IMG/VR virus record: IMGVR_UViG_3300042876_000891 | Span: 1-37,277 of that record | Reading direction: 5' to 3' (one strand) | DNA from: a virus | DNA length: 37,277 nucleotides | In this document: positions 1 through 21,426 of the stretch, in pieces | Layout: every line of letters begins with the position of its first letter | Position numbering within the stretch: position 1 is the first letter of the stretch | Made by a program: the position numbers and the translations under genes | The notes under the pieces: model-generated | Told to the model about the DNA's origin: nothing | Seen by the model: the letters and a program-made list of their open reading frames with translations, nothing else | Database searches by the model: none

Positions 1-127
1 TCTCGGGGAAGGTGACGCGGCCGCGGGGCGAGGACTGCCCGGGCTGCTCGAGCTGGACCTGCCCGGCTACTTGCGCTGCTTCTCGAAGAACTGCTCGGCC
101 GCCTGCGAAACCCTGTCGCTGAGCTCG
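1..127. repeat. Terminal direct repeat copy 1 (identical to 37151..37277); end overlap that closes the sequence into a circle
   Basis: Bases 1-127 match 37151-37277 base for base. The repeat lies inside coding sequence rather than at a non-coding genome end. Confidence 0.95.
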
Positions 128-2971
128 TCGCGGCTGACCTTCTCGCCGGCCCGCAGCACCGTCACGCCGCCGATCTTCAGCCCGCGATGCGCGGTCGGCT
201 GCTTCGGCTGCGACTCCCCGCTGCTTGTGGGCTTCGACGAGGGCGTCTGCTGCGTCATAGGTGGCTCCGAGTCCGTATCCGAAGGTGACGTTGAGCGGCT
301 CGCCATCCTCGTGTGTGATAGTAGCGCACAAGGCAGCGAGGTCGTCAATGAACGCCTGCAAGGCCTTGGGATCGTTGGACCGGGCCGCGAACTCGTCCCC
401 CGAGAGGTGCGCGAAGTCGAACTCGGCGCCGTAGGCCTTCGCCGCAGCGCGCGCCACGCCGATGAGCATCGCGTCGCCAACCTCGACGCCGAGCGTCTCG
501 TTGACCGCCCGGAGCCCGTTGAGGTCGATCGAGGCGACGTGCGCCGCCTTGTCGAGCTTCTCCAGGAGGAAGAACCCCTCCCCCGTCAGCGCGCCGTTCC
601 CGTCCAGGAAGGCGGCCTTGAAGGCGGCCTCGTCCGGCGGGAGCAGCTCCCGGACCTCGGCCGGGACGTCCGCGGCAGCGAGCTCCTCCGCGGAGAGCTT
701 CATCTCGGCCGCGGTCTCGACCTTCACGCCGAGGGGCTTCGCGCCGCGCAGCGCCCGCTTCCCCGAGCCCTCGAGCCCCTTCTTCGTGCCGGCGTGGGTC
801 GCCCCCGCCTCCTCGAGCGTGGCTCCCACCGCGCCGGTGAGCGCGATCCCCTCCGGCATGGCGGCCTGCGCCTGCTCGAGGATGCGCGCCAGCTCCGCCT
901 GGTCCGCCACGCGGACGGCGAAGTCGCCGCCCACCTTGGCGACGAGTGGGGCGGCGCCCCGCAGGGCGCGCGCCGCCGCTCGGTACAGCAGGTTGCCGGT
1001 CGTGTGGCCGCTCTTGTTGGCCCACTTCGTGCCCTCGACCGAGATGTGCGCGACGAGCGGCCGCGCCGGGTCCGCCGGCAGCGCCTCGAAGGCCCGCCGG
1101 TTCAAGGTGCCGGAGTTGTGGTCGGTGAAGAAGAGCGCCTCCTTCCCGGCCCGGTCGAGCCCGGTGAGGTGCTTCGTCAGGAGCTCCGAGGAGCGGGTGA
1201 ACGGCAGCCCCGCCGGCGTGAGCCCGCCGAGCGCCTCGTTCTCCACCTGCAGCCCCATCGTCTCGTAGAACGACCAGGCGTCGCCCTTGCCGAGCCGCTT
1301 CGCCATGGTGCGCGAGAAGGCGCTCCAGAGCGCGGCGTTCGTCCGGGCGATGTCCGGGTCCTGCCCGGCCGCCTCGAGCTTGGCGGCGACGTCGGCGAGG
1401 ACGCGCTGCTCGGGCGTCGCCTCGACCGGCTTCGCCTCCGCCTTCGCGCTCTCGTCGGCGAGCTGCTTCGCCTCCTTCTCGACCTTCTCGGCCTCCCGGA
1501 GCGTGAGCGCGTCGCCGACGCGCAGGTCCGGGACGAGCCCCTCGTAGCCCTTCAACGGCGCGACGTTCACCGCGAAGTCGTGGGTCGGGATCGTGACCTC
1601 GACGCCCGGGTTCCCGGCGGCCTCCTCGAGCTGGCGCGCGACGGCGGGCATCCGCTGGGCGACCCAGGCGAGATCCTTGTCGTTCGCCTGGAAGAGCTCG
1701 AGCAGCTTCTCGGCCGGCGCGGTGACCGACTCGATCGCCCCGCCCTGCCGCGCCTGGATGTTCTGGACGTGCTCGCGGGCGACGTCCGGCAGGCTCATCA
1801 CGGTCGAGGACTCGGTCGCCGCCTCGCCGAGGGCGGTGAAGAACTGCGCTCGCTCGCGCGCGTGCGACGCCTCGGTGACGTCCGCGCGGACCCCGGCGGC
1901 CACGCCCGGCGCGCCGTAGACGCCGCCGGCGAGCGCGCCCTCGAGGCCGGCCTCGCCGACCCGGCCCCAGTCGATCTGGACGCCCTCCTGGCCGTCGATG
2001 AACTGGCCGCCGAGGATGGTGTTCAGCTCCTGCATCGCCTCGGTGAGCCCCTCCGCCGTCATGCCGCCGGCGAGACGCGCCGCGGCGCGGGCGACCGCGG
2101 CCCGGCCAGTGTTCGAGCGCAGGGCGGTCCGGAAGACGTCCCGAGCGACCCCGCCCTTCATCAGGGCCTTCAGCCCGGGGATCTGGAATACCAGGTCGAG
2201 CGGGAGGACCTCGAGCGCGCCGTTCGCCGCGCCCACGATGCTGGACGCGAGGAAGGCCTGCTCGTGGGTGACGCCAGGGATCTGCATGTACTCCCGGTAG
2301 GCGCTCCCCATCTCGCGCTTGCCGGTGGCGATCGTCATCCCGGCCCGCCCGCCGACCGAGGCGCCGAGCTTCGCGCCGCCGATCATCGCCGGTCCGACCA
2401 GCGTCCCGCCGGTCCCCACCGCCGCGCCGAGGCCTGCGACCCCGGCCCCGATCATAGCGCCGGCCGCCGCCGTCGGGCCTGCCTCGAGCGCCGAGGCGCC
2501 CATCATCGGCGCCGACTCCGCCGCCGCGCGCAGGCCGCGCGCCACGATGCCGGTCTTCGGGCGGGGCACCGAGGCGGCGAGCTGCTCCAGGCGCTCGGCC
2601 TCCGCGATCTCCTCCGGGGTCGCCTCGCCGATCGCCTGCCGGTACCCGATGATGGCGATCCGGTCGTTCAGGCGCCCGCGGTAGGCCGCCTCGCCGATCC
2701 CGCCGGTGAGCATCGCGCCCGAGCCGCCGAAGACGTCCTCGAGGAAGGAGAGCCCCTTCACGTCGCCGGCGACCTGCGCCGCGCGCGCGGGGTCGGCGAG
2801 CAGCTCCTGCGTCGTCGGGGCGTCCTTCGTGAGCTCGGTCCAGCTCGGGGCGGCCGGAGCCGCCGGCTTCGGCTGGGAGGCGACGAGCGCCTGCGCCGCC
2901 GAGACCCCTGCCGCCCGCTCCCGGTCCTCCGAGCTCGGCGCGTCCGCCGCGAGCTCGTCCCAGGGGTTCAC
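1..2971 (-). CDS. N-terminal part of a giant virion-associated (ejection/polyvalent-type) protein. The ORF continues across the junction into 37150..33534.
   Basis: GTG at 2971 overlaps the upstream TGA (GTGA). My hand translation of this minus frame (codon tops congruent to 1 mod 3) from 2971 to 1 found no stop. The protein text is plausible: MNPWDELAADAPSSEDRERAAG..., a Gly-rich hydrophobic stretch GAMIGAGVAGLGAAVGTGGTLVGPAMIGGAKLGASVGG (2348-2461), then two GGDEF-like domains. The ORF track omits it because it runs off the window edge. Confidence 0.75.
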   Translation of the reverse strand, partial: MNPWDELAADAPSSEDRERAAGVSAAQALVASQPKPAAPAAPSWTELTKDAPTTQELLADPARAAQVAGDVKGLSFLEDVFGGSGAMLTGGIGEAAYRGRLNDRIAIIGYRQAIGEATPEEIAEAERLEQLAASVPRPKTGIVARGLRAAAESAPMMGASALEAGPTAAAGAMIGAGVAGLGAAVGTGGTLVGPAMIGGAKLGASVGGRAGMTIATGKREMGSAYREYMQIPGVTHEQAFLASSIVGAANGALEVLPLDLVFQIPGLKALMKGGVARDVFRTALRSNTGRAAVARAAARLAGGMTAEGLTEAMQELNTILGGQFIDGQEGVQIDWGRVGEAGLEGALAGGVYGAPGVAAGVRADVTEASHARERAQFFTALGEAATESSTVMSLPDVAREHVQNIQARQGGAIESVTAPAEKLLELFQANDKDLAWVAQRMPAVARQLEEAAGNPGVEVTIPTHDFAVNVAPLKGYEGLVPDLRVGDALTLREAEKVEKEAKQLADESAKAEAKPVEATPEQRVLADVAAKLEAAGQDPDIARTNAALWSAFSRTMAKRLGKGDAWSFYETMGLQVENEALGGLTPAGLPFTRSSELLTKHLTGLDRAGKEALFFTDHNSGTLNRRAFEALPADPARPLVAHISVEGTKWANKSGHTTGNLLYRAAARALRGAAPLVAKVGGDFAVRVADQAELARILEQAQAAMPEGIALTGAVGATLEEAGATHAGTKKGLEGSGKRALRGAKPLGVKVETAAEMKLSAEELAAADVPAEVRELLPPDEAAFKAAFLDGNGALTGEGFFLLEKLDKAAHVASIDLNGLRAVNETLGVEVGDAMLIGVARAAAKAYGAEFDFAHLSGDEFAARSNDPKALQAFIDDLAALCATITHEDGEPLNVTFGYGLGATYDAADALVEAHKQRGVAAEAADRASRAEDRRRDGAAGRREGQPRRAQRQGFAGGRAVLREAAQVAGQVQLEQPGQSSPRGRVTFPE
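67..258 (-). CDS. 63-aa ORF nested in an alternative frame inside the linker of the giant ORF (hypothetical protein)
   Basis: ATG at 258 is preceded by GGAG (268-265) with a 6-nt spacer, and the TAG stop is at 67-69. By hand count 60 of 63 codon third positions are G or C. Text: MTQQTPSSKPTSSGESQPKQPTAHRGLKIGGVTVLRAGEKVSRDELSDRVSQAAEQFFEKQRK. Confidence 0.6.
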   Translation of the reverse strand: MTQQTPSSKPTSSGESQPKQPTAHRGLKIGGVTVLRAGEKVSRDELSDRVSQAAEQFFEKQRK

Positions 2972-4719
2972 CGGCCACCCCGCAGGTACGCGCGGACCGC
3001 CATGTCGGCGATCGCCGTCGAGCTGGAGTCTTTCCCAGCCTTCTGGAGCGCCGCCTTGATCCGGGGGCCCTGCGTCTGGATGAGGTCGAACACCTGGAAG
3101 GCCTCCGGCTTGGTGAGCACGCGATCGCCGGCGCTGCGCTTCCAGCCGGTGGTGATGTCGCCCTCCCACGCGCTGAACTCGGTCATCGTCGTCTTCTGGG
3201 CCTCGGGGGTGAGCCCCTTCCCGCGGCGGAGCGTGCTGTCGCGGACCGCCGTCGAGTAGTCGCTCGGGATCCCGGAGTCCTTCGCCTCGGCCTTCCACGC
3301 CTTGGCGTTGACGAGCTTGTCGACGAGCGGGTTCACGATCGCGGTCTGCTCGGCCGGGGTGAGCGGCGCGGCGGAGCCCTTCCCGGCCTTCGCGCGCGCG
3401 GCGTTGTAGAGCGCCCGGTTCACCTCGCGCTGGACGTAGCCCACGGCGAAGGCGTCGTCCTCGGCGTCCTTCCCGGCGACGTGCAGCCCGTGGAAGACGA
3501 GCCTCGTGTTCGTCTCCTCCTGGGGGCCGAAGAAGGACGTGTACTTCACCGAGCTGGGGCCCTCGAGCTTCAGCGTCCGCTGCAGGTCGAGGAAGTGCTT
3601 CGCGTCCGGGACGGCCAGGCGGCTGAAGTACGACGCGAGGTCGGCGTTCTTGAACGCCTCGGGGTTGGTCGTGGCGAGGTTCGTCAGCTCGGCGTAGGCC
3701 TTCAGGTCCGTCTCGACGGGCTTCTTGTCCGGGCGGGTGCTCTCGACCAGGCGGATCGACCACTGGAGGGTCTCGCTCGACACGGTCCCGGGCGCGGGGA
3801 TGAGCTTCGTGGAGAGCTGGCGGCCGCCCGCCTGGATGTACGCGCCGAGCAGGGTGTTGCGCGCGGCCTCGTCGGCCTCCCGGAACTGGTTCGCTGCGGC
3901 GGACTTCTCGCCGTGCTCGAACTCCCGCACCTGCCCCTCGAGGACGCGCTTCCAGTCGGCGCGCTGGTCCGGAGAGAGGCGATCGAGCCCCTGCCCGCTC
4001 TCGAGCTGCCCGATGAGCCGGCCCGCCTCGAGGACGTCCGCGGTGGACCGGATGCCGGCGAGCCGCCGCGCCTCGAGCGGCCTCACCTGCTGCGCGAACT
4101 CGATGATGCCGAGCCGCTGCTCCTTCTCGGCCGGCTCGAACGCCGTCGTCTGGACGACCAGGTTGTGGGCCTTCAGGAAGTTTCCCGCCCGGATGCTGTT
4201 CGCGACCGCCTCGTCGAGCGTCTTCCGCTGGTCGGCGAGCATCCCGCGCAGCTGCGCCTGCTCGAGCCGCGCGCGGCGCCCCCGGATCTCCTCGGCCACG
4301 CCGGACTCGAACTCGGACTTCCATCCGCTGCCGACCGTCATCTCCCCGCCGGCCTGCGCGACCAGATCCTTCGCCGCCTTCGCGTGTAGGGCCCCCGCGA
4401 CCTCCCACGTCGGGATGGACCCCTCGCCGTTGAGGCGGCGCTGCACCTCGCTGTCGAGTGAGCCGATGTCGTCCCCGAGCCGCTCGCGGACGAAGGCCTT
4501 GTCCAGGTAGGGCGAGGCCCCGATCTTCGTCTCGACGTCGGCGAGCCCGGCCGCGACCTTCGCGTGCGCGGCCTCGAGCTGCGTCCGAACGAGCGAGCGG
4601 CCGAACTCGGCGAGCCCGGTCTCGATGGTCTGCGCGGCCTGCCGCTGCGCCTGGTCGACGCGGGCGAACGAGGCGCTCGAGTCCTGGACCGACGCGTACT
4701 CGATCTCGGGGAGCCTCAC
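2968..4719 (-). CDS. Putative internal virion/ejection protein (583 aa), in the position of the T7 gp15-type protein
   Basis: Plausible helical protein text with a GTG start at 4719. It sits between a small membrane-anchored protein and the giant protein, downstream of the tail-tubular-like genes. The function is inferred from position only. Confidence 0.55.
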   Translation of the reverse strand: MRLPEIEYASVQDSSASFARVDQAQRQAAQTIETGLAEFGRSLVRTQLEAAHAKVAAGLADVETKIGASPYLDKAFVRERLGDDIGSLDSEVQRRLNGEGSIPTWEVAGALHAKAAKDLVAQAGGEMTVGSGWKSEFESGVAEEIRGRRARLEQAQLRGMLADQRKTLDEAVANSIRAGNFLKAHNLVVQTTAFEPAEKEQRLGIIEFAQQVRPLEARRLAGIRSTADVLEAGRLIGQLESGQGLDRLSPDQRADWKRVLEGQVREFEHGEKSAAANQFREADEAARNTLLGAYIQAGGRQLSTKLIPAPGTVSSETLQWSIRLVESTRPDKKPVETDLKAYAELTNLATTNPEAFKNADLASYFSRLAVPDAKHFLDLQRTLKLEGPSSVKYTSFFGPQEETNTRLVFHGLHVAGKDAEDDAFAVGYVQREVNRALYNAARAKAGKGSAAPLTPAEQTAIVNPLVDKLVNAKAWKAEAKDSGIPSDYSTAVRDSTLRRGKGLTPEAQKTTMTEFSAWEGDITTGWKRSAGDRVLTKPEAFQVFDLIQTQGPRIKAALQKAGKDSSSTAIADMAVRAYLRGGR

Positions 4720-4722
4720 CGG

Positions 4723-5097
4723 CTACCTCCACCAGTTGTTGTTCTTCGCGAAGTCGAAGAAGGAGCCGGCGCCCCCGGTCAGGAAGGAGAACTTCGCCGC
4801 GGTCTCGGTCGCCTGCGCCTGCGCCATCCCGGCGTCGAGCATCCACTTCTCCTGGCGGCCGAACTCGGTCTCCATGTCGCTGAGGTCGCGCTGCAGCCCC
4901 TGGCTCTCGAACTCGATCCCGGACGCGGCGCCCCGGGCCTGCGCCTCGCCGAGCGTCGCCTGGTGCTGAAGCCGGAAGCGCCGGAGCTGCTCGCGCGTCT
5001 CGGCCCGCTGCTGGTCGGCCTGCTTGTTGCCGAGCCACCAGGAGGCTCCCGCGCTGGCGAGCCCGACTCCGAGTTGTGCAGCGAAGAGCGCGCTCAT
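4723..5097 (-). CDS. Small putative internal virion protein with a hydrophobic N-terminus (124 aa)
   Basis: N-terminus MSALFAAQLGVGLASAGASWWLG looks like a transmembrane segment, followed by a charged helical region. The gene is tightly packed in the tail/ejection gene block. Confidence 0.5.
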   Translation of the reverse strand: MSALFAAQLGVGLASAGASWWLGNKQADQQRAETREQLRRFRLQHQATLGEAQARGAASGIEFESQGLQRDLSDMETEFGRQEKWMLDAGMAQAQATETAAKFSFLTGGAGSFFDFAKNNNWWR

Positions 5098-5107: not shown

Positions 5108-7156
5108 TCACGACTCGTTCCGCTGCAGGTCGCCGAAGATGGTCAGGATCTCGGTCCTGAACGGCAGGTCCTGCTCGATGGTGATCTCCCCGTTCTCCGC
5201 CCAGCCGAGATTGCGCAGCTCGACGTCGGCGGTGAGTAGCGGCTCGCCCTCGTCCATCGGCGTGGCCGGGGTTCGGTCCGGGATGCGCTTGCCGTTGACC
5301 AGGGGGGCCGCCGAGTCGTTCAGGCGGAGACCGATCCGGGAGTAGCGCTTCTTCGCGCCCAGCGGCGGGAGGGTGATGAGCTTCGGCCGGTAGGCGAGAC
5401 CGACCACGACCTCGGTCCCGACCAACGTCGGGTCGTCAGCGATCCGCTGGGCAGTGACCGCCTGCACCTGCCCGCCGACGACGACCTGGTTCGCCTCGAG
5501 CTGATCGTCGACGACGACGCGCACCGTCTGCCCTTCGAGGTGGCCGAGCCCCGTCACGATACCGTTCCCGGCGAGCGCGCCCACGATGTGGCTGTCCAGG
5601 TACTGCGCTCCGACCTCGTGCATCGGGACGATCTCGAGCCGGCTCGAGCCGGCGCGGGTGACCCAGAGGATGAGCTCGTCGCCGTCCGGCGAGTCGACGA
5701 CGCAGGCCGTCACGATGCCGGTGACCTTGAGCTGCCACCACGCGGCGACCTGCGCGCCCTTGTCGTACGTGCACGCGACCATCGTCCCGTCGGTCCTGAG
5801 GACGAAGATCGTCGGGACTGGCTGCCGCGCGAAGTGGACCTCCTTCACGTCGTAGACGAGATGCTCGCCGGTGAGCGAGACGGGGGCGCTGACCCAGCCG
5901 TCCTTCACCTGGGCATCGAAGCTCAGGGAACGGACCTCCCGGAGACTGCGGCCGACGAAGAGAACCTCGTCCCCGAGGTGAGTCGCCTGGATCGCCGCTG
6001 AGCCGAAGGCGCTCTCGTCCTCGACCTGTACGTTTTCGGCGTAAACGACGGCGCCGCTGCCGTGGATGGACTGCTCGACGCGCTCGGCGCCGGCAAGGAG
6101 GGTCTTCTGCCCCTGCAGCCAGCGGATCCCGCCGCGCACGGAGGCGCTGATCGCGAAGCCGTCCGCCGCGCCCGCCCCGGTGGTGAAGTCGAACGGGTAG
6201 CCGGACTTCGACGCCTGGACGACGTTCGGCTCGTCCGGCGTGGCGCCGAGCCAGAGCCGGCCCTGGAAGCCCCAGTCGATGGTGCTCGGGTAGTGCGTGC
6301 CGACCCACGAGGAGGGCGGAGACACGAACGTCGCCGCGTGCAGCTCGAAGAAGCCGTGCACGTTCAGCGTGAGCAACTGCGGCGCCACGTTGCCATGGAC
6401 CAGCATCATCCGGTTCTTCGTGAGGTCCTGGTCGAACTGGACCGCCGCGACCTGCGCGGCCGTCCACGGGGCATCGATGTGGTCAGCCGCGGCAACCCCG
6501 TCATCCGTCACGAAGATGTCGTCGATGTACTTGAACGACCCTGTTGCCAGCGAGTGGACCGAAATGCCGGCGGCTGAGTCAGCCGTCGCCGTGAAGGTCA
6601 TCGAGTAGTTGGCCCACTGGGCCGTGAACAGGAACCCGGTGCCCGGCACGCCGGAGCCGAGAGCGGTGACCGTCGCCCCAGCCAGCGACGACTCATTCTT
6701 CGCTCGGAAGCGAACCGTGTACGTGTGCCCCGTCACCCAGTTGCAGACCTGGGTGACTGAACCCTCTCCGAGACGGACATAACCGCCAACCATCCAGGTC
6801 GCCTGTACGGCAAGCGTCCATCCCGTGGTCCCCGCGTCGAAGGTCCCGTTCGTCACGAGGTTTGTCAGGAACGTCTGCGCGACCCCGGCGCGCGAGAAGA
6901 TGCGCAGCTCCTGGTCGAGCAGCGCCAGCACGTACGGGCCGCCGCCGGAGACGTTGAAGGGGATCGACCGCAGCACCCCCGCCTGCGTCGCCTTGAACGC
7001 CGAGCCCGCGCGCATCAGCGCCGAGCCGTAGGAGAGCGGGATCCAGTCCTCGTCGAGCTTGAGCCCCTTCGCGTAGAGCGGGAGGTCCAGCCGCCCGCGG
7101 AGACGCGGCGAGAGCTCCCCGGCGGCGAAGCTGGACTGGATCGGCAGGTAGGCCAC
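5108..7156 (-). CDS. Tail tubular protein B-like (682 aa) with an inserted carbohydrate-binding-module-like segment
   Basis: GTG start at 7156. N-terminus MAYLPIQSSFAAGELSPRLRGRLDLPLY resembles the N-terminus of T7-type gp12 proteins. It directly follows a gp11-like gene. Residues about 98-218 (NGTFDAGTTGWT...) look like a CBM_4_9-type sugar-binding insert. Confidence 0.6.
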   Translation of the reverse strand: MAYLPIQSSFAAGELSPRLRGRLDLPLYAKGLKLDEDWIPLSYGSALMRAGSAFKATQAGVLRSIPFNVSGGGPYVLALLDQELRIFSRAGVAQTFLTNLVTNGTFDAGTTGWTLAVQATWMVGGYVRLGEGSVTQVCNWVTGHTYTVRFRAKNESSLAGATVTALGSGVPGTGFLFTAQWANYSMTFTATADSAAGISVHSLATGSFKYIDDIFVTDDGVAAADHIDAPWTAAQVAAVQFDQDLTKNRMMLVHGNVAPQLLTLNVHGFFELHAATFVSPPSSWVGTHYPSTIDWGFQGRLWLGATPDEPNVVQASKSGYPFDFTTGAGAADGFAISASVRGGIRWLQGQKTLLAGAERVEQSIHGSGAVVYAENVQVEDESAFGSAAIQATHLGDEVLFVGRSLREVRSLSFDAQVKDGWVSAPVSLTGEHLVYDVKEVHFARQPVPTIFVLRTDGTMVACTYDKGAQVAAWWQLKVTGIVTACVVDSPDGDELILWVTRAGSSRLEIVPMHEVGAQYLDSHIVGALAGNGIVTGLGHLEGQTVRVVVDDQLEANQVVVGGQVQAVTAQRIADDPTLVGTEVVVGLAYRPKLITLPPLGAKKRYSRIGLRLNDSAAPLVNGKRIPDRTPATPMDEGEPLLTADVELRNLGWAENGEITIEQDLPFRTEILTIFGDLQRNES

Positions 7157-7159
7157 GGC

Positions 7160-7735
7160 TCACCACCTCTTCGCGGCGAGCTCGCTGGAGCGGACCCTCT
7201 CGGACGTCCCCTGCATCCCGTCCCGCGCCGCCGCCTGCGCGAGTTCGCCCTGGTAGCGCCGCTCCATCGTCAGCGCGAGCTGGGGGTTCTCGGTGATCGG
7301 GCCGGCAAGGTCGGCCGCCACCCGGGCCGCCACGACCCGGCCGAAGCCGGGCGAGAAGAGCGCGGGGTCCTCGAGGAGGACGATCGCCTTCACGTAGAGC
7401 GTCGTGGGCGAGGTCTCGGTGAGGACGAACGCGCCCTCCCGCCGCCACTCGATCTCCTGCGTCCCGCTGCCGTCGTCGCAGGTCACGACGCGGATGACCG
7501 TCGCCGGGAGCGCGTACTTCGAGGGGAAGTCGGCGAGGCCCGTCGCCACCACCGGCCCGAGCTGCAGCCGCTGGGTGGCGAACGTCCACGCGCGCGCCTC
7601 GAGCGCGGCCCGGAGCGCCTCCGGGTAGACCCGCGCGCAGAGCTCCTCCACGGTGCCCAGCGTCGCGTCCAGGGCGGTGATGGACCGTTCGCCGAGCCAC
7701 CCGAGCGCGAGGTTGCAGATCCCGACGGCGTCCAC
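7160..7735 (-). CDS. Tail tubular protein A-like (191 aa)
   Basis: GTG start at 7735. ICNLALGWLGERSITALDATLGTVEELCARVYPEALRAALEARAWTFA parallels the T7 gp11 N-terminal pattern (..ILASIGEPPVSTL......RILNK....IQSRGWTFN). The size also matches (T7 gp11 is 196 aa). Confidence 0.6.
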   Translation of the reverse strand: MDAVGICNLALGWLGERSITALDATLGTVEELCARVYPEALRAALEARAWTFATQRLQLGPVVATGLADFPSKYALPATVIRVVTCDDGSGTQEIEWRREGAFVLTETSPTTLYVKAIVLLEDPALFSPGFGRVVAARVAADLAGPITENPQLALTMERRYQGELAQAAARDGMQGTSERVRSSELAAKRW

Positions 7736-7744
7736 GTCGGCCCC

Positions 7745-8876: not shown

Positions 8877-9734
8877 CTAGGACTCGAGCACGTGCGCGCG
8901 GACGACGTGCTCGTCCTCGATGCGCGTCGCGCCGGCGGCGAAGGCGCTGTAGACGCGCCACGCGAAGGACTTCTCGGTGCTCTCGACCACGCGGGTCCAG
9001 ATGTCCTTCGTGATGTGCAGGCCGATCGCCCGCTTCGTCATCGCGAGGTAGTAGTACTCGGACCCGACGACGTTCGGGAGCAGGTTGGAGACGATCCAGG
9101 TGTAGCCGAGCCACCGCTCGACGTACCCGGTCGTCGCGAGCGCCTGGGCGTTCACGTAGTCCGAGCTCGTCGACTGGGTCATCTGGAGGAGCTTCTTCGC
9201 GCCGTTCGGCCGGATGATGAAGACCTTCTCCTCCTCGGGCGGGACCTCCTTCGCCCAGAAGAGCTCGTTCACCGACGTGATGAAGTTGAAGTCGAACGCC
9301 TGGGCGGCGCCGCCGAGGCCCTGCCCGACCGGGAAGACGGTCGGCGCGCCGGCCTCGTCCTCGGTCGAGCCGAGGGCGGCGGTGATGATGATGTCGTCGA
9401 ACTTCCGGCCGATGGCGTCCGCGTGGGCGCGGAGCAGGTCGGAGGTCGGGTCCGTGGTCGCCTGGGCGACGTTCTCCGGGTCGACCAGGTTCGAGACCTC
9501 GAACCCGGACGGCTTGGAGCGGCGCCGCGTGAGGCTGATCGCGGTGTCGGCGGTGGCGCCGCCGGGCGTGCGCGCGACGGCGGTCAGCGCGCCGAGGCGG
9601 TCCCAGAGGTGCATGTCGGGGGCGTTCCGCTCGATGCAGAACTGGCGGAACTTCGAGCCGCGCTGCTGGGAGAGCGCGCGGAGGTTCGCCTCGTAGGTGC
9701 GCTGGTAGATGGGGCTCAGGTCTGCGACGGCCAT
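8877..9734 (-). CDS. Putative major capsid protein (285 aa)
   Basis: It follows the portal and scaffold genes. It has a 204-nt leader with AGGAGA before the ATG and a strong hairpin after the stop, consistent with a highly expressed gene. The protein text is plausibly globular. The call rests on position and size, not on a recognised motif. Confidence 0.55.
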   Translation of the reverse strand: MAVADLSPIYQRTYEANLRALSQQRGSKFRQFCIERNAPDMHLWDRLGALTAVARTPGGATADTAISLTRRRSKPSGFEVSNLVDPENVAQATTDPTSDLLRAHADAIGRKFDDIIITAALGSTEDEAGAPTVFPVGQGLGGAAQAFDFNFITSVNELFWAKEVPPEEEKVFIIRPNGAKKLLQMTQSTSSDYVNAQALATTGYVERWLGYTWIVSNLLPNVVGSEYYYLAMTKRAIGLHITKDIWTRVVESTEKSFAWRVYSAFAAGATRIEDEHVVRAHVLES

Positions 9735-9938
9735 GTGGTTCTCCTGCCCGCGTCCGCGGGCGACTGGTCAGGTCGCCACGAGGAATCCGGACAGGTGCCG
9801 GGCCCGCGCTTGGAGCTGTGCGCCCGCTCCCGAGGCCCTGGGCTTCTGCGGGGCCGGCGCGAGGCCGGGAGACCCACCACCCAGGAGCAGCAACGAGTCG
9901 AGGCTACGGAGGGGCAGGGACAGGACGCCCCGCGGGGC

Positions 9939-12040: not shown

Positions 12041-12247
12041 TCAGGTTCCTTTCGCCTCTTCGCGGAGGCGCTCGAGGTCGGCCAGGGCGTCGAGGCGCCC
12101 CAGCCGGTTCAGCATCTGGTGCTCGGTCTCGCTCGGCGCGCCGCTCCGGTAGACGCGGCGCAGGTGCCGGAGCAGCGCGGCACCCTCCTCGGTCGCGAGG
12201 ATCTGGACGGCAGCCCTGCGGTCGCGGTCGCGCTCGTCGACGCTCAT
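12041..12247 (-). CDS. Hypothetical small protein (68 aa)
   Basis: The ATG overlaps the portal stop (ATGA). The text is plausible and charged. Confidence 0.5.
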   Translation of the reverse strand: MSVDERDRDRRAAVQILATEEGAALLRHLRRVYRSGAPSETEHQMLNRLGRLDALADLERLREEAKGT

Positions 12248-13980
12248 CCGAGCACCCCGCCGGACGGCAGGAGGGCGGGCTGCTCACCGATGCCCGGGGG
12301 ACCGCCGACAGGCACGCCGGCAGCGGCGGCAGCGGCCATCCCCTGCCCCGCGTTCTTCATCGTCTCGGCCTCCTGGGCCCTGGCCATGGCGGCCTGCTCG
12401 GCGTCGATGCGCCGCTGAGCCTCGGCGGGCGAGTTGAACATCGCCGCCGGCGAGCCGACCCGGCGCGAGTGCTCGCGGATCATCCCGGCGAGGTTCAGGT
12501 GGTGCCGCGCCTCGGTGAAGCCGAGCTTGACCAGGTTGGCGATGAAGCCGGCGCTGCGCTCGATCGCGACGACCTCGTCCATGAGCTGCGCGCGGGCGAT
12601 CGGACCGCGGAAGCGCAGCTTCAGCTCCGCCTTCTTCCGCTTCACGATCTCGGGCGCCTGCGGGAGCCGCTTCGCGCGCGAGAGGTGGTCCAGGACGATC
12701 AACACGACGGGCGCGAGCGCGTCCCACTGGAGCCGGGCCACCGGCGAGCCGATCGCCCGGTTCATCTCGTCCTTCCGGGCCGCGACCTCGGTCGCCGTCA
12801 TCTGCGGCGACTCCTTCAGCTGCAGGTCGTCCTCGTGGAAGCACCGGCGGATCTCGATCCGCTCGTCGCGGAGAACCTCGACGGAGACGTCGAACCGGGC
12901 CGCGCTCTCGAGCGGCCACCAGTCCTCCTTCGACGGCATGACGGTCGTCTTGCCAGGGCGGAGGTCAATCGACCCGGAGACACGCTCGGAGACGCCATGT
13001 GCGGGGTCCACGGCCTTCTCCGCCGCGTTCCGCTGCAGCTCCTTGAACCCGTTCAGCCACTTCACGTGGCGCAGGGCGATGTGGCCGCGGCCGAAGCCCC
13101 ACTGCGTGCCGGGGCGCTTGCCCCAGCGGGCCATGAGCGCGGGCATCTTGTAGTAGCCGTCCTCGAAGCCGAGCTGCTCCCCCTCCCCCTCGAGCGTGAA
13201 GTAGACGTAGCCGAAGGGGCGCTTCTCGCCGATCGCGTCGCCGGGGAGATCGGCGTCGATCGTCTCCGTGCCGAAGGAGCCGTCGCGGCGGAAGACGCAG
13301 AAGATGACGGGGATCTTCGTCGTCGCGGCCGACGGGTCCTGGGCGAGCCGCTTGATCCGCTCGGGCGCCTCGAACGCCTGGCCGCTCGTGTCCCTCGAGC
13401 GCGCGCAGTGGTCGAGGATCTGGACCGGCGTCCAGCTCAGGTGCCGGTACCAGCGCAGCACGCCGCCGCGGCTGTCCTCGACGAAGCCGGTCTGCCGGAC
13501 CGGCACCGCGGTGAAGTCGAGCCCCTTCCACTCCCCGGGCTTCGCGCTCATCGGCTCGACGACGAGCGCCATGTTCCCGATGGAGCTCCACTCGAGGTAG
13601 CCGGACGCGATCTCCATCCCGAAGTCGCTGGCCTGCAGCTCCGACCAGACCAGCTCGGCGAGCTTCTCGCGGTACGCGACGGCCTCGTGGTCCTGCTCGA
13701 TCTCGGAGTCCTGCCACTCGAGGTCGAGCCAGCGCGCGGCCGGCGACGTCACGTCAGCGTGCAGCGCGCTGGCGAGGTGCTCGGCCGCGAGCGGAGCGGT
13801 GAGGTCCCAGAGCCCGACGTCGGTCTTCGCCTCGACCGAGGACCGACTCAGGGCCTGCGACGTCTGCCCGCTGAGCGGCATGATGAACTTCTCGATGTCG
13901 TCCCAGACCGCCTCTTCCTCCGCGCGGTCGGTCCGCAGCGCTTCCCACTCCTGCTTCAGCTTGAGGATCTCGACGGCCAT
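12244..13980 (-). CDS. Portal (head-tail connector) protein (578 aa)
   Basis: The size and the position after the large terminase fit a portal. The protein text is long and plausible. The C-terminal Gly/Ala/Pro-rich tail is typical of podovirus connectors. Confidence 0.7.
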   Translation of the reverse strand: MAVEILKLKQEWEALRTDRAEEEAVWDDIEKFIMPLSGQTSQALSRSSVEAKTDVGLWDLTAPLAAEHLASALHADVTSPAARWLDLEWQDSEIEQDHEAVAYREKLAELVWSELQASDFGMEIASGYLEWSSIGNMALVVEPMSAKPGEWKGLDFTAVPVRQTGFVEDSRGGVLRWYRHLSWTPVQILDHCARSRDTSGQAFEAPERIKRLAQDPSAATTKIPVIFCVFRRDGSFGTETIDADLPGDAIGEKRPFGYVYFTLEGEGEQLGFEDGYYKMPALMARWGKRPGTQWGFGRGHIALRHVKWLNGFKELQRNAAEKAVDPAHGVSERVSGSIDLRPGKTTVMPSKEDWWPLESAARFDVSVEVLRDERIEIRRCFHEDDLQLKESPQMTATEVAARKDEMNRAIGSPVARLQWDALAPVVLIVLDHLSRAKRLPQAPEIVKRKKAELKLRFRGPIARAQLMDEVVAIERSAGFIANLVKLGFTEARHHLNLAGMIREHSRRVGSPAAMFNSPAEAQRRIDAEQAAMARAQEAETMKNAGQGMAAAAAAGVPVGGPPGIGEQPALLPSGGVLG

Positions 13981-13983
13981 GGG

Positions 13984-14271: not shown

Positions 14272-15747
14272 CTACCTCGAGCTGCCGAACGAGCGCACGG
14301 CGGAGCGCTCCCCGGTCTGGTTGTCGACGATGACGACGGTGCGGATCGCGGCGAGGACGACGGCGTCGCCGCGATCGGGAGAGCGGCCGAGGCGCTTCTT
14401 CACTTCGGCCTTCTCCTCGATGACGAGGCCGCGACCGCTGAGCCGGTAGCGGGGCGCGCAGAGGTCGGCGAAGAGCCGCTGGTCGGGCGGGAGAGCGACG
14501 CGGGGCGCGCGGTCGGGAGAGAGCGCCTCGCGGAAGCGCCACCAGGTCTCGGCGCGCCGGTTCGTGAAGGCGAGCTTACCGCTCATGTCCGTACCGTCCG
14601 AGCCCTCGGAGTTGTTCACACCCACGACGCGTCGGCCGACGAGGCCGTCCAGGTGGTCGATGACGGAGGCGCCGATCCCGATCACGTCCACGTGGATCGG
14701 CGCCTCGTCGCCGGCGACCTCCATCGCGCGCAGGGCGGCCGCTCCGCCGGTCACCACTCCCGACGAGTCCGGCTTCACGGTGACGATTTCGTCGTAGCGC
14801 CAGCCGTGGCGCGCCGCGATCGTGGTCTCGTCCCCACCGCGCGACGGGTCCACGCCGACGCTCGAGACGGGGCCAGAGGGCTCGCTCTGGCGCCAGCGGT
14901 CCATGGCCGCCTTCACCCAGGCGCTCGGGATGACCTGCCACTCGTCGTCCTGGCGGCCGGCGGTGAAGTCGCCCTGCAGCATCTGCGAACGGAGCGGCTC
15001 GGGGAGCGCCTGCAGCTGCCGGACGTAGTTCGTGCCGGCGAGGAAGCGGTTGTCGGCTACGCGGCTCGGGATGAACGTCCGCGAGATCGGCGAGATCGTC
15101 TCGCCCTTGTGCTCGAAGGGCTCGGGGCCGTCGACCCAGCGCTCGGCGCCGTCGACCATCGCGACCCACCGGAGCTCGCCGGGGAGCGCCGGCTTCGGGA
15201 AGGACGGGTCGAGCCAGGGCGCGAACCAGCGGACGAGCCACTCGCCCTCGGCGCTGGTCGGAGGGTTGGAGCACAGGAGCGCGCGCACGCGCTGCTTCCG
15301 GTCCGTGGTGCGGAGCCAGCCGAGCAGGAACCGGACCTGGCTCTCGAGCAGGTTCGCCGCCTCGTCGCAGACCAGGAGGTCGCGCGGGTTGCCCTGGAAC
15401 TTCGACTCGTCGCCGGCGTTGGGAACGCCGCCGAACTGGATCTGCCGGCCGTGCGGGAGGCGCCACACGTGCTCCTGGCCGTTGAGTCCGACGCGTCCGC
15501 CGAGGAGCGCGGCGAGCTCGTCGATGACGGGCATGAGCTGCGTCGCCTCTCGCCGGACGAAGAGCGTGCGGCGGTGGCGGGTGACGGCGAGGCCGATGCC
15601 GAGCGCGGTCTTCCCTCCGCCGGCGGCTCCGCCGTAGAGCAGCTGGTCCGCCTCACACAGAAAGGCCTGCAGCTGGGGTCCGGGCTGCGGCACCCACGGG
15701 ACCGTGCTCGATAGCTCGGAGAGGCGCGCGCGGTCGACGACGCTCAC
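14272..15747 (-). CDS. terL: Terminase large subunit (491 aa)
   Basis: GTG at 15747 overlaps the upstream TGA. The text has Walker A LYGGAAGGGKTAL and Walker B-like DLLVCDEAANL, with a C-terminal nuclease-sized domain. The upstream part of the 633-aa track ORF is Arg/Pro/Gly junk. Confidence 0.8.
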   Translation of the reverse strand: MSVVDRARLSELSSTVPWVPQPGPQLQAFLCEADQLLYGGAAGGGKTALGIGLAVTRHRRTLFVRREATQLMPVIDELAALLGGRVGLNGQEHVWRLPHGRQIQFGGVPNAGDESKFQGNPRDLLVCDEAANLLESQVRFLLGWLRTTDRKQRVRALLCSNPPTSAEGEWLVRWFAPWLDPSFPKPALPGELRWVAMVDGAERWVDGPEPFEHKGETISPISRTFIPSRVADNRFLAGTNYVRQLQALPEPLRSQMLQGDFTAGRQDDEWQVIPSAWVKAAMDRWRQSEPSGPVSSVGVDPSRGGDETTIAARHGWRYDEIVTVKPDSSGVVTGGAAALRAMEVAGDEAPIHVDVIGIGASVIDHLDGLVGRRVVGVNNSEGSDGTDMSGKLAFTNRRAETWWRFREALSPDRAPRVALPPDQRLFADLCAPRYRLSGRGLVIEEKAEVKKRLGRSPDRGDAVVLAAIRTVVIVDNQTGERSAVRSFGSSR

Positions 15748-16211
15748 CGGCTGCTCCCGAAGGCGCGGATCGCGTGCGGCGGGCGTCGCGGCCGGGACGC
15801 CGGCGGCAGGACGCGCTGGAGCGCGGTGCGCATCCTCCCGCCCTCGACCTGGATGACCTCGGTCAGGTCGAGCTCGACGTCCAGATCGGGGGCTCCCGGG
15901 CGCTGCCAGATGCCGAGCTCGCGCGGGACGAAGTCGCGGCGGTGGTTCACGCGGATGAGCCGCTCGATCCGCTTGACGAGCACGCGAGCGCGGGAGCCGT
16001 CGAGGATCACGATCGCGAGCACCTGGCCCGAGCCGTGGCGGCCGAAATCCTCGCCGAACTCGATCTCGCCAGGGCCGGCGCCGGGAAGCGCCTGGGTGGG
16101 GTCGTCGGGGTTGAGCTTCAGCGCCATCGCCTCGAGGTTGAAGCGCTCGAGGACCATGCGGAGCGCACGCCACGCGAGCCGGCGCGGGTAGAGCGCGCTG
16201 GGATCAACCAC
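15744..16211 (-). CDS. Hypothetical protein (155 aa) between the small and large terminase genes
   Basis: GTG start at 16211, high third-position GC, plausible text. Confidence 0.55.
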   Translation of the reverse strand: MVDPSALYPRRLAWRALRMVLERFNLEAMALKLNPDDPTQALPGAGPGEIEFGEDFGRHGSGQVLAIVILDGSRARVLVKRIERLIRVNHRRDFVPRELGIWQRPGAPDLDVELDLTEVIQVEGGRMRTALQRVLPPASRPRRPPHAIRAFGSSR

Positions 16212-16728
16212 GACGCACCTCGTGCTCGAGCACCGAGAGCTTCGCCCACTCCTCGTCGGTGATGTCGCGGGTCTCGGTGACGTCCTTCACCTCGAGGATC
16301 TCGCGGAGGAGTCCGTGGTGCTTCGCGAGGAGTCCGGCGGCTTCGTTCTTCGACCAGAACCGGATCTTCAGGTTGCCCTTGGTGTCGCGCTCGATGCTCG
16401 AGATGGCGCGGCGGACGTCCTCGGGCATCTTGTGGATCGGCAGCACGCGCCCCTTCGCGTCGAAGGCTTGAGCGATGTCGACCTTCGCGACGCGAGCGAG
16501 CTCGAGCTTGATGCTCTCGGCCGAGGCGTCGATCTTCGCGAGCTGCGGCGCGGTGAGCTGCGCGACGCGGCGCGCGACCTGAGGCCTCCTGAGGAGCGCT
16601 GGCCCCTCGGTCTCGGCCGTCGCTCGGCTCGCCTTCGGGTAGACCTCGCGGTACGCAGCGGCCGCGTTGCCGCCGTTCTTCACGACGACGTGCGCGAACC
16701 GCTCGTGCCTGGCGTTGAGCTTGCTCAC
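16204..16728 (-). CDS. terS: Terminase small subunit (174 aa)
   Basis: GTG at 16728 overlaps the upstream TGA. VSKLNARHERFAHVVVKNGGNAAAAYREVYPKAS matches the N-terminal HTH pattern of Terminase_2-type small subunits. Confidence 0.65.
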   Translation of the reverse strand: MSKLNARHERFAHVVVKNGGNAAAAYREVYPKASRATAETEGPALLRRPQVARRVAQLTAPQLAKIDASAESIKLELARVAKVDIAQAFDAKGRVLPIHKMPEDVRRAISSIERDTKGNLKIRFWSKNEAAGLLAKHHGLLREILEVKDVTETRDITDEEWAKLSVLEHEVRRG

Positions 16729-17126
16729 CTGCGAGGCATCCTCCGCTGACCCGGGGAAAAGTCGCCCCGGTCGGCGCGGGCGCGGACGCGAGCGTAGGCG
16801 TCCACGGCGGCGTAGAACTCGCGCTGCGCCTGGCGGTACTGGCCGTCGTTCTCGGTGTCGGCTTCGGCGTAGCCGTGACCGAGGTCCTCGATCTCGGCCA
16901 TGAAGCCGGACTTCGCGTCGGCGAGTCGCAGGAGCGCGGCCTCGAGGTTGTCGCGGGCGAGCTCGAGCCGTTCCTTCCGGCTCTTCGGCTGGAGCGGAGT
17001 CAGGGGCTTCCCGCGCTGGAGTTGCTTCCGGTGTCCCGCGCAGAGGCCGGCCTGCTCCTCGTCGTTCGGGCAGCCGTCGAACGTGCACCGATCCGCCACC
17101 GTCGCTCCCCCTCCGTTGGTCTTCAC
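16725..17126 (-). CDS. Zinc-finger protein (133 aa)
   Basis: GTG at 17126 overlaps the upstream TGA. The cysteine/histidine cluster is C-x4-C-x9-C-x2-H (CTFDGCPNDEEQAGLCAGH), followed by a helical region. Confidence 0.5.
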   Translation of the reverse strand: MKTNGGGATVADRCTFDGCPNDEEQAGLCAGHRKQLQRGKPLTPLQPKSRKERLELARDNLEAALLRLADAKSGFMAEIEDLGHGYAEADTENDGQYRQAQREFYAAVDAYARVRARADRGDFSPGQRRMPRR

Positions 17127-17470
17127 GACACGTCCTCCTCGCGCAGGCGCCACTCGCGGATGGTCTTCGTGGGTGGTCTCCAGCCGTGGACCAGGAGCCG
17201 GATGCCGGCCTCGCGCAGGAGCGGCACGAAGGCGTTCGCGGCGATCTTGTCCAGGCGGGCGTTGATGTTCGACGCGGAGGTCGTCTGGACCAGGACGAGC
17301 TGGCCGCGGGTCTCCGGCGTCTTGCCGACGGCGAAGACGTCCCACGCGTTGAAGAGGTCGCGCTTGAACACGAGGGGGCCGGCGCGGACGGTCTGCTCGA
17401 CGACCCACGGCTCGTAGCCGCGTTCGCGCAGGAGCTCGAGGGAGCGACTGGTCGGGGACTGCTTGGCCAT
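17123..17470 (-). CDS. Putative PD-(D/E)xK-fold nuclease / Holliday-junction-resolvase-like protein (115 aa)
   Basis: The ATG shares one base with the dnaB stop. The DLFNAWDVFAV...LVLVQTTS arrangement resembles the D...(E/Q)xK core of small resolvases. The call is weak. Confidence 0.35.
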   Translation of the reverse strand: MAKQSPTSRSLELLRERGYEPWVVEQTVRAGPLVFKRDLFNAWDVFAVGKTPETRGQLVLVQTTSASNINARLDKIAANAFVPLLREAGIRLLVHGWRPPTKTIREWRLREEDVS

Positions 17471-18918: not shown

Positions 18919-19826
18919 GCGTGGCCGCCCTTCTTCGCGAGCTCGGCCTTCTCCTCGGGCGTGAGCGGCGGCTTGTAGACCGGGCGCTTCAGGCCGGTGG
19001 CCTGCTCCCAGGTCTTGCCGTCGGTGCGCTCGAGGAAGGCCTGCTGGTCGACCCAGGCGGCGGGGTCGTTGAAGTCGGGATCGCCGAGCTTCGGGTTCTC
19101 GCCGGCGTCGCGGTGCGGACGAGCGGGCTCGAGCTCGTCGATGAACGTCGCGACGTAGTCGAGGGTCTTCGGCGTGGTGCCGCTGTCGCGACAGCGATCG
19201 GCGCAGAGGGCAGCGGCGGCCTCGGGACCTCCGAGGCGCTCGACGTGTTCGCGCAGCTCGGCCGCGAGCTCGGGCTTCGCGAGCCGGAGGGGGTTCATGC
19301 CGACGATCGCGAGCTGGTCGGCGAGGGCTCGGCGGAAGGTGCCGAGCGGATCCCCTGCGTGCTCAAGAGATCTTGATCCTTGTGGATGTGGATGTGGATG
19401 TGGATCGCTTGGCGAGGCTTCCCTTTCGCTTGAGCCTCGCTTAAGCCCTGCTTTAGCCCTGCTTCCGTCCGTAGGTTCCCGGTTTCTGGGGGCTTTCCCG
19501 CCCTTGGCACCGGCGGCGGCAAGTCGCTGTCTCAATTCCTGGGCCCTGCTGCGCTCGGTCTCCATCCGCCTCGACACGAGACGCTCCGCGTCATCGGCGG
19601 CGACGAAGCGGTCTCCGATGGCCGCCCAGACGCGCTTCATCGCCTCCTCGTCGAGGTGAAGCATGCGGCGGATCGCCTCTGTCGAGGACGGGATCGATCC
19701 CTCGCGCCAGCACATCAGCAGGAGGTGGAACCAGGCGCCCTTCTCCTCGCACGTCCAGCCCTGGAAGCGCTCGTCGGAGAGCGTCTCCTGCGCGTAGATC
19801 GGGAACCACGGGAGTTCGCCGGCCAT
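18915..19826 (-). CDS. Replication initiation / helicase-loading protein with a DUF1376 (YdaU)-like N-terminal domain (303 aa)
   Basis: WFPIYAQETLSDERFQGWTCEEKGAWFHLLLMCWREGSIP matches the DUF1376 pattern. The stop overlaps the dnaB start (ATGA). The protein contains a (His-Pro)n linker. Confidence 0.55.
   Translation of the reverse strand: MAGELPWFPIYAQETLSDERFQGWTCEEKGAWFHLLLMCWREGSIPSSTEAIRRMLHLDEEAMKRVWAAIGDRFVAADDAERLVSRRMETERSRAQELRQRLAAAGAKGGKAPRNREPTDGSRAKAGLKRGSSEREASPSDPHPHPHPQGSRSLEHAGDPLGTFRRALADQLAIVGMNPLRLAKPELAAELREHVERLGGPEAAAALCADRCRDSGTTPKTLDYVATFIDELEPARPHRDAGENPKLGDPDFNDPAAWVDQQAFLERTDGKTWEQATGLKRPVYKPPLTPEEKAELAKKGGHA
19382..19405. repeat. Hexanucleotide repeat (GTGGAT)x4 encoding PHPHPHPH in the replication protein
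   Basis: Four exact tandem copies are visible in the sequence. Confidence 0.9.
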
Positions 19827-20108
19827 CTACTCCTCCTCTTGCGGATTGCGTGGCCGCCCGCGGTGGCGGTCTGCTTGGGCGTACCGGAGCGCCGCCTTCC
19901 GGAGTCGATCCCAGGTCACGGGGAGATCGTCGGCGGAGACCTCCACGGCGGCCGCGTACTCGAGCGCAGCCACGCGCAGGTTCCAGGCGGGATGAGCGAC
20001 GCGACCGCCGGTGCGGCGGTCCACAAAGCAGGCCCCCGAGGTGTCGATCCTCGCGTGCGCGGGTTTGGAGTCCGCGCTGCTCGCCGGAGCGGGGCCCGGG
20101 TTCTTCAC
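19827..20108 (-). CDS. Hypothetical protein (93 aa)
   Basis: GTG at 20108 overlaps the upstream TGA (GTGA). The central region reads plausibly. Confidence 0.5.
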   Translation of the reverse strand: MKNPGPAPASSADSKPAHARIDTSGACFVDRRTGGRVAHPAWNLRVAALEYAAAVEVSADDLPVTWDRLRKAALRYAQADRHRGRPRNPQEEE

Positions 20109-21425: not shown

Positions 21426-21426
21426 G

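Follow-up and report, generated by a model that had tools for sequence, protein, structure and literature searches.

A tandem GGDEF module, one unit degenerate and one apparently intact, in a putative ejection protein of an uncultured podophage

The virus record IMGVR_UViG_3300042876_000891 from IMG/VR, analyzed here over its whole length of 37,277 nucleotides (the window), contains a giant open reading frame (ORF) whose predicted product carries two consecutive GGDEF-like units just upstream of a module resembling the internal virion protein known as D (IVP-D). Unit 1 looks non-catalytic yet shaped to hold a nucleotide, while unit 2 looks catalytic and unregulated, judging from conserved residues. 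The explanation that we favor, with a probability of roughly 0.5, is that the pair forms an unregulated, dimerization-independent GTP cyclase that is delivered on infection by a podophage related to BPP-1 and epsilon15. An earlier sequence-only reading of this DNA had proposed two tandem GGDEF-like units in a putative ejected virion protein, and both parts of that proposal are supported by the profile, fold, and gene order comparisons given below.

The first and last 127 bases of the window form an exact direct repeat (1-127 = 37151-37277), and the window is therefore a circular assembly of 37,150 bp, with a G+C content of 70.8%, that probably represents a phage genome in complete or circularly permuted form. 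The giant ORF lies on the minus strand and runs from 2971 to 1, across the circular junction to 37150, and on to 33534. It is a single stop-free frame of 2195 amino acids, as the sequence-only reading had supposed in joining its two parts. It starts with a GTG at 2969-2971 that overlaps an upstream TGA (GTGA), and this start is consistent with the N-termini of 2 metagenomic homologs, P0001 and P0002 (MSGSxWD[DE]L). The G+C content at third codon positions (GC3) of the minus strand is 0.95-1.0 across about 300-2950, which indicates that the frame of the giant ORF is truly coding. The predicted layout of the protein is an N-terminal module of the kind found in polyvalent proteins, unit 1, unit 2, an Arg-rich linker, and a C-terminal module with an HExxH motif and likeness to IVP-D. 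Its parts are as follows.

1-2971, minus strand: 5' part of the giant ORF, residues 1-990; open frame, start shared with P0001 and P0002.
33534-37277, minus strand: 3' part of the giant ORF past the circular junction; stop codon at 33534-33536, and 37151-37277 duplicates 1-127.
1238-2971, minus strand: N-terminal module, residues 1-578, resembling the LPD22 type of polyvalent proteins; 50-54% identity to P0001 and P0002.
737-1237, minus strand: unit 1, residues 579-745, a degenerate GGDEF domain by family profile, fold, and residue alignment.
215-736, minus strand: residues 746-919, comprising a conserved inter-domain linker (residues 746 to about 790) and unit 2, whose catalytic residues appear intact; Pfam match at 242-547.
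95-214, minus strand: Arg-rich linker, residues 920-959, from unit 2 to the C-terminal module; in frame and conserved in homologs.
Ending at 33534-33536, minus strand: C-terminal Bbp10/IVP-D-like module, residues 960-2195, by phrog_9880 and by alignments to Bbp10 and the HU1 protein.
37080-37094, minus strand: HESGH, residues 1010-1014, an HExxH motif of the zincin type where the C-terminal module starts.

A hidden Markov model search with PF00990 (GGDEF) placed unit 2 above the Pfam gathering cutoff (E 1.4e-8, 35.2 bits versus a cutoff of 23.8). Unit 1 alone had no Pfam match and is recognized as GGDEF only via the family profile and its fold. In direct comparisons, unit 1 shares 36% identity with a 148-residue stand-alone GGDEF protein (P0003) and 33-35% with the GGDEF proteins of about 150 residues of Bordetella and Pseudomonas siphophages, which are its closest relatives among GenBank phages. 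A family profile of 24 sequences, 22 of which match PF00990, aligned to solved diguanylate cyclases in both halves, unit 1 with an E value of 2.3e-10 and unit 2 with one of about 5e-7. When the profiles of the 2 units were compared with each other by hhalign, they matched with a probability of 99.2% (E 6e-20), and the pair is therefore the product of an old internal duplication within the GGDEF family.

Structure prediction agrees with these assignments. The AlphaFold2 model of the pair, built on the family alignment, has a mean predicted local distance difference test score of 91.1 and a predicted template modeling score of 0.87; it consists of 2 beta-alpha palm domains with a confidently placed linker between them, and the high template modeling score suggests that both domains pack in a defined way. 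In Foldseek searches of the PDB, the top 50 matches of this model were GGDEF cyclases or GGDEF-domain proteins (probability 1.0, target template modeling (TM) score up to 0.69), including Dcsbis, WspR, SiaD, PleD, and the Thermotoga maritima diguanylate cyclase. The sole exception was GTP cyclohydrolase III at rank 19, which superposed poorly. Cas10 was not among these 50, and the PADLOC library of defense systems gave no match at E ≤ 1. A kinship with Cas10, mCpol, or CD-NTase enzymes is thus unsupported by either search. The sequence-only reading had likened the pair to the tandem palms of Cas10, and we retain this as an analogy only since the closest relatives are classical GGDEF cyclases.

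The state of the individual active site residues was assessed in 137 aligned copies of the module (mean pairwise identity 31%), with PleD as the reference numbering and the PleD equivalences backed by alignments to SadC, Dcsbis, and other cyclases.

Metal-binding Asp (PleD D327): unit 2 D816 (524-526), 137/137; unit 1 S644 (1040-1042), with S, T, or G in 107 and an acidic residue in 14/137.
Signature, unit 2: SGDEF at 389-403; family pattern H-x-[S/H]-G-D-E-[F/Y], with G858 and D859 in 136/136 and E860 in 135/136.
Signature, unit 1: GGD-F at 920-931; Glu deleted in 137/137.
N-terminal motif, unit 1: 1088-1123, minus strand, DHNSGTLNRRAF.
Base-reading Asn (PleD N335): unit 2 N824, with 117 N and 14 D; unit 1 N652, 133/137.
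Base-reading Asp (PleD D344): unit 2 D833, with 114 D and 21 N; unit 1 position 660, with 67 D and 62 N.
P-loop Lys: unit 2 K/R821, with 79 K and 22 R; unit 1 K649, 131.
C-terminal Lys (PleD K442): unit 2 K916, 114/120; unit 1 K730, 86.
Other conserved positions, unit 1: H656, 134; a Gly-x-Arg stretch at 737-739.

The motifs named in the sequence-only reading are found on the minus strand where it had placed them (GTLNRRAF at 1088-1111, GHTTGN at 992-1009, GGDF at 920-931, the Asp of unit 2 at 524-526, and SGDEF at 389-403), save that ALTGEGFF, whose letters were correctly read, spans 569-592 rather than ending at 589. Its observation that unit 1 lacks the Glu of GGDEF extends to every copy in the alignment, and its pairing of a degenerate palm with an apparently competent one is borne out, since unit 1 has lost the metal-binding Asp and the Glu while unit 2 keeps D816 and G858-D859-E860. 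Its further suggestion that the 2 units are degenerate in complementary ways is true of unit 1 but not of unit 2, which has a full catalytic set and departs from the canonical sequence in a weaker N-terminal TGL-NRR helix motif and in Ser or His for the first Gly of the signature. The RxxD inhibitory site (I-site), expected 5 residues ahead of the unit 2 signature, had been reported as missing; where its Arg would stand (849) the window protein has Ala, and just 6/137 copies have Arg, while the I-site Asp (852) is kept in 96/137.

Unit 2 is predicted to be an active nucleotidyl cyclase using GTP because it keeps the metal-binding Asp, the acidic residues of GDE, the guanine-reading Asn and Asp, and the phosphate-binding Lys. 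Unit 1 would be unable to catalyze this reaction since the metal-binding Asp is absent (in 131/137 copies) and the Glu is deleted. Its P-loop Lys, its base-reading Asn and D/N, and a conserved His are all retained, and unit 1 most likely holds the second (acceptor) GTP.

In ordinary GGDEF enzymes, 2 identical domains, each with one GTP, are brought together by regulated dimerization. Here, the fused dead paralog would supply the second GTP, and one polypeptide would stand in for the regulated homodimer. The single metal site would form pppGpG first and would then cyclize it once the intermediate has rebound the other way round. Single-site cyclases such as cGAS likewise make the second bond after the intermediate rebinds. 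Such an enzyme would be monomeric, and since it has neither the RxxD feedback site nor a sensor domain, we propose that it would also be constitutive. These properties would suit a virion protein that is present in few copies and passes into the cell threaded like beads on a string, as the N4 virion RNA polymerase is proposed to do. Cyclic di-GMP (c-di-GMP) or a related guanine dinucleotide would be expected to rise within minutes of infection, and this signal could reprogram or shut down pili, motility, or exopolysaccharide, or it could interfere with nucleotide-based defense; superinfection exclusion is a candidate role as well.

The same residues bear on what the product would be. An unlikely alternative is that the chemistry is the same but yields linear pppGpG, a hybrid or adenine dinucleotide, or a short cyclic oligonucleotide, which would serve as a decoy, agonist, or antagonist of cyclic-oligonucleotide-based antiphage signaling systems (CBASS), type III CRISPR, or Panoptes-like immunity rather than in ordinary c-di-GMP signaling. 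There is one intact catalytic site per chain, the base-reading Asp is replaced by Asn in 21/137 copies of unit 2 and 62/137 of unit 1, and the [S/H]GDE[F/Y] motif preceded by His is non-canonical, all of which fit a different product, as do the conflict effectors (ART-PolyVal and PBECR5) that adjoin the pair in homologs. A minimal palm enzyme making decoy cyclic nucleotides is also known on the host side (PMC12657218). However, the Asn and Asp pair that specifies guanine is kept in most copies of unit 2, the nearest relatives in sequence and fold are all c-di-GMP synthases, and the PADLOC search showed no similarity to models of Cas10, mCpol, or CD-NTase.

It is more improbable still that the module is not an enzyme at all but a nucleotide-binding sensor or sponge (for GTP, c-di-GMP, or defense messengers) or, within the ejection apparatus, a folded spacer or an oligomerization unit. 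Despite being clearly non-catalytic, unit 1 is strongly conserved, and degenerate GGDEF domains that only bind GTP or c-di-GMP are well known from PdeA/CC3396 and FimX; the FimX GGDEF domain is among the Foldseek matches of our model. The metal-binding and catalytic acids of unit 2, however, are invariant in an alignment of only 31% identity, which is hard to explain without catalysis. T7 gp16 is present at few copies per virion, and if the protein studied here is as scarce, as is probable, stoichiometric sequestration would be ineffective.

Several observations weigh against an active, delivered cyclase. Unit 2 scores under the cutoff of TIGR00254, it has Ser or His for the first Gly of GGDEF and His for the Arg that precedes it, and the position corresponding to the Arg of PleD at 446 (R446) shows no conservation of this residue. 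These departures from the canonical motif mean that its activity or product could differ. SGDEF and AGDEF variants are reported to be active elsewhere. Pfam searches of 20 other ORFs of the window returned no PilZ, EAL, or HD-GYP domain, so no receptor or phosphodiesterase hints at a signaling circuit within the phage itself. The tandem module is absent from GenBank phages, cultured ones included. Finally, production of the protein falls late in infection, and the module could instead exert its effect in the producing cell, a point that we take up below.

The case for delivery comes from the protein that carries the pair. The genes around the giant ORF, all on the minus strand, follow the order of bbp17 to bbp9 in Bordetella phage BPP-1, in which the 2052-residue Bbp10 occupies the place of the giant ORF.

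12244-13983, minus strand: portal, PHROG profile match.
8877-9767, minus strand: major head protein, PHROG profile match.
7160-7744, minus strand: ORF of tail tubular protein A, gene at 7160-7735; PHROG profile match.
5108-7159, minus strand: ORF of tail tubular protein B, gene at 5108-7156; PHROG profile match.
4723-5097, minus strand: small protein in the position of bbp12, which is annotated as an internal virion protein in the BPP-1 record; no profile match of its own.
2968-4722, minus strand: ORF of a lysozyme-like internal protein, gene at 2968-4719; PHROG profile match.
31193-33475, minus strand: tail fiber gene directly downstream of the giant ORF, matching tail fiber PHROGs.

Residues 960-2195 align to Bbp10 with 30% identity over 1310 residues (E 1e-104) and to a 2062-residue protein of Pseudomonas phage HU1 with 31% identity over 1241 residues, and they match phrog_9880 (E 1.8e-257, profile positions 941-2211 of 2231). 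Bbp10 has been listed as a homolog of T7 internal virion protein D, and internal virion proteins house domains destined for the cytoplasm, the N4 RNA polymerase among them (Hardies et al. 2016, PMC4819975). By homology and synteny, the giant protein is thus a putative ejection protein of the T7 gp16/IVP-D type, and describing it as putatively ejected, as the sequence-only reading did, is well founded. By analogy with these proteins, we would expect it to be packaged and ejected. The phage appears to be a podophage of the BPP-1/epsilon15 kind, with the GGDEF pair as cargo inside an internal virion protein.

The N-terminal module has a similar affiliation. LPD22 scores 61.5 bits in P0002, which is 50% identical, versus only 19.2 bits in the window protein, and there is a weak match (E 3.4e-7) between the module and the N-terminal part of phrog_2206, a family of N4-type virion RNA polymerases. 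Downstream of this module the homologs differ, with a ClpP/NfeD-like protease domain in P0002 and an unrelated region of about 700 residues in P0001; we sought homology between the C-terminal half of P0001 and the C-terminal module of the window protein and found none. This comparison shows that cargo is swapped in cassette-like fashion behind a constant N-terminal module. The giant protein and its family show the features by which polyvalent proteins are recognized, namely giant size, multiple domains, polyvalent-specific domains, and a place in a structural operon.

The HExxH motif, at the beginning of the C-terminal module, occurs at that position in 100/100 homologs. It may mark a peptidase that processes its own chain, similar to the MPTase found in polyvalent proteins and in N4 gp50. 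The C-terminal module has no Pfam match at E ≤ 0.01 and therefore none to MPTase-PolyVal. Together with the conserved Arg-rich linker that precedes it, the HExxH motif could allow the cyclase to be released by self-cleavage, a form of release that Iyer et al. discuss for polyvalent proteins (PMC5512222). The same features accommodate a reading to which we give little credence, in which the cyclase works late in the producing cell before packaging (in lysis timing or envelope change), or in which the C-terminal module alone is packaged after HExxH-dependent cleavage. The gene does lie in a late structural operon with a conserved HExxH just downstream of the module, and phage P1 DdrB is cut before packaging (PMC5512222). 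The N4 virion RNA polymerase, however, shares the plan of the giant protein, includes an MPTase domain, and is described in the same source as packaged unprocessed. Hundreds of proteins, moreover, have the GGDEF pair at a constant place upstream of the ejection module, and the effector domains that co-occur with it are typical of delivered polyvalent proteins.

The Arg-rich linker has an atypical codon usage. In-frame GC3 on the minus strand falls to about 0.43 at 61-210, versus about 0.97 elsewhere, while an alternative frame at 259 to 67 (MTQQ...FFEKQRK*) has a GC3 of about 0.97. We considered whether 67-259 holds a small gene of its own or a frameshift, and rejected both readings. Homologs such as P0010, P0014, and P0038 conserve the Arg-rich peptide of the main frame, homology to the HU1 protein starts in frame at residue 960, the peptide of the alternative frame has no significant match, and relatives hold one uninterrupted ORF. 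The high GC3 of the alternative frame is the in-frame first-position G+C of a stretch rich in Arg, Ala, Gly, and Glu. Recent recombination, RNA structure, or translational pausing are possibilities that could account for the codon usage of the linker.

The tail fiber gene lies in an open frame (31193-33712) that overlaps the end of the giant ORF at 33534. A domain of the polysaccharide deacetylase family (PF01522, E 3.2e-15) in its product suggests a receptor-binding protein that modifies exopolysaccharide or capsule. This domain is of interest because c-di-GMP controls exopolysaccharide.

When 1.84 billion representative proteins were searched exhaustively, the tandem module turned up in at least 583 protein clusters at E ≤ 1e-3 and in 65 at E ≤ 1e-30. 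Almost all of these are proteins of 2300-4500 residues with the module at about residues 700-1100, and in about 110 of the 150 best matches unit 1 is followed by unit 2, then by a variable insert and the Bbp10-like module. Counts rest on this search, since word-indexed protein searches have limited sensitivity: with the whole N-terminal protein they returned the 2 N-terminal homologs only, with unit 1 a single protein, and with the family profile none. Among the related loci that we collected (34 from IMG/VR and 10 from GTDB genomes), those with the full tandem share the order of tail tube genes, giant ORF, and fiber wherever the contig extends far enough, and the module lies inside one open frame of 2155-3424 codons in 17/17 loci checked. 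Longer homologs (P0007, P0014, and P0019) carry ART-PolyVal, a PBECR5 nuclease, DUF7178, and DUF6861 between the GGDEF pair and the C-terminal module. The slot after unit 2 is thus a variable effector bay, of which the window has a minimal version with a 40-residue linker.

Metagenome-assembled genomes (MAGs) of Myxococcota account for 7 of the 10 genome matches (L005, L007-L010, L013, and L014), and others are binned to Sideroxydans, Planctomycetaceae, and Alphaproteobacteria. One of the Myxococcota loci (L007) lies at 319-340 kb in an Archangium gephyra MAG scaffold (QFQP01000002.1), and its position inside this 523-kb scaffold indicates an integrated prophage. The Myxococcota matches, together with a G+C content of 71%, suggest a myxobacterial host for the window phage, and the Myxococcota matches also suggest that the tandem-GGDEF family has its main hosts among myxobacteria. 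We regard as possible, but tentative, the fuller proposition that a large clade of podophages, none of them cultured and many of them Myxococcota prophages, injects a single-chain diguanylate cyclase in which a dead paralog gives the acceptor GTP pocket, and which would work without dimerization, sensor, or product inhibition.

How this module relates to what has been described before can be seen by comparison with several known systems. The occurrence of GGDEF domains in polyvalent proteins of phages and plasmids was recorded by Iyer, Burroughs, Anand, de Souza, and Aravind in 2017 (PMC5512222), for instance in an Acetonema longum prophage (WP_004096050.1). The GGDEF passages of that paper call the domain "not very widespread" in polyvalent proteins and propose delivery on invasion and interference with host nucleotide signaling. 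The idea of delivery, which the sequence-only reading had not known as an established phage strategy, had therefore already been put forward there as a proposal. As in those proteins, the GGDEF domain here is part of a giant protein of several domains whose gene lies among virion genes and whose delivery is predicted, and the tandem-GGDEF family shares LPD22, ART-PolyVal, PBECR, and a peptidase-type HExxH motif with polyvalent proteins. The degenerate-plus-intact tandem does not appear in the GGDEF passages of PMC5512222, whereas it is near-constant in the at least 583 clusters found here, and in the window family the pair is placed just upstream of an IVP-D-type ejection module.

The closest analog in overall plan is the N4 virion RNA polymerase gp50. 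Both it and the window protein combine an N-terminal module, an embedded enzyme, and a peptidase-type domain or motif with an IVP-D-like C-terminal region. In N4 the enzyme, bound for the cytoplasm, sits between ejection modules, and the protein enters the cell along with the DNA, as is predicted for the window protein. The MPTase domain of N4 lies within the region needed for encapsidation (PMC5512222), and the N4 polymerase has been described as beads on a string, with translocation via the channel of the tail and ejection proteins proposed by the authors (Bellis et al. 2026, PMC13434306). The cargo differs, being a GGDEF pair here and a T7-like RNA polymerase in N4, and the predicted output is a small-molecule signal rather than transcripts.

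Among cellular enzymes, unit 2 resembles PleD, WspR, Dcsbis, SiaD, and the T. maritima diguanylate cyclase in fold, metal-binding Asp, acidic residues of GDE, guanine-reading Asn and Asp, and phosphate-binding Lys. Unlike canonical diguanylate cyclases, the window module lacks sensor and receiver domains as well as an RxxD I-site, unit 2 has Ser or His for the first Gly and His for the preceding Arg, and its partner is a fused dead paralog instead of an identical subunit. Mammalian adenylyl cyclase (C1/C2) and Cas10 (Palm1/Palm2) are pseudo-heterodimeric pairs with one catalytic and one degenerate homologous domain per chain, the degenerate one still contributing a nucleotide or ligand pocket. 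The likeness is one of arrangement, as the Foldseek and PADLOC searches detected no specific similarity in sequence or fold and the window pair arose by duplication within the GGDEF family.

The GGDEF proteins of about 150 residues in Yuavirus and Vojvodinavirus phages (e.g. APL99421 of Bordetella phage CN1) are also minimal and without sensor domains, and a fold match in BFVD reaches a TM score of 0.78. In contrast to the window module, they are single and intact, and they are encoded in early or accessory regions beside anti-restriction or endonuclease genes, being neither virion proteins nor tandems. Stand-alone phage GGDEF genes have been annotated and linked by correlation to hyper-biofilm lysogens (PMC8471281). 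A second group of IMG/VR contigs, of 29-69 kb (L039-L048), match unit 2 only, over about 110-185 residues (mostly about 110), and may carry stand-alone GGDEF genes of this kind.

Full-text literature searches returned no paper tying GGDEF to internal virion or ejection proteins. A delivered GGDEF domain is thus of a kind already known as a computational prediction, and what is new is that a dead and a live unit are conserved in tandem, that this tandem has a fixed place in IVP-D-type ejection proteins, and that it is abundant in phages that are uncultured and largely myxobacterial.

The remaining annotated genes of the window (14272-30053) are listed here; no integrase domain was detected among the 20 ORFs scanned with Pfam in the rest of the genome.

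14272-16173: ORF of 633 residues beside the portal gene, without a Pfam match; probably the large terminase.
17470-18918: DnaB-like helicase.
20691-21092: CII-like regulator, weak match.
22692-23897: PD-(D/E)XK nuclease.
23909-24901: AAA_24 protein.

Pili, motility, exopolysaccharide, and development are under c-di-GMP control in many bacteria, and the structures concerned often include phage receptors. If our explanation is correct, an enzyme injected with the genome would shift c-di-GMP before any phage gene is expressed, and small-molecule signaling would join RNA polymerase, ADP-ribosyltransferase, and anti-restriction among the activities delivered from virions. This would be the first second-messenger synthase delivered in this way, rewiring host c-di-GMP or emitting a decoy dinucleotide at entry. 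It would also represent a previously undescribed way of building a GGDEF enzyme, in which a fused dead-plus-live pair shows how the GGDEF family can escape from regulated dimerization. At about 340 residues the module is compact, its structure prediction is of high confidence, its orthologs number in the hundreds, and it is directly testable in vitro.

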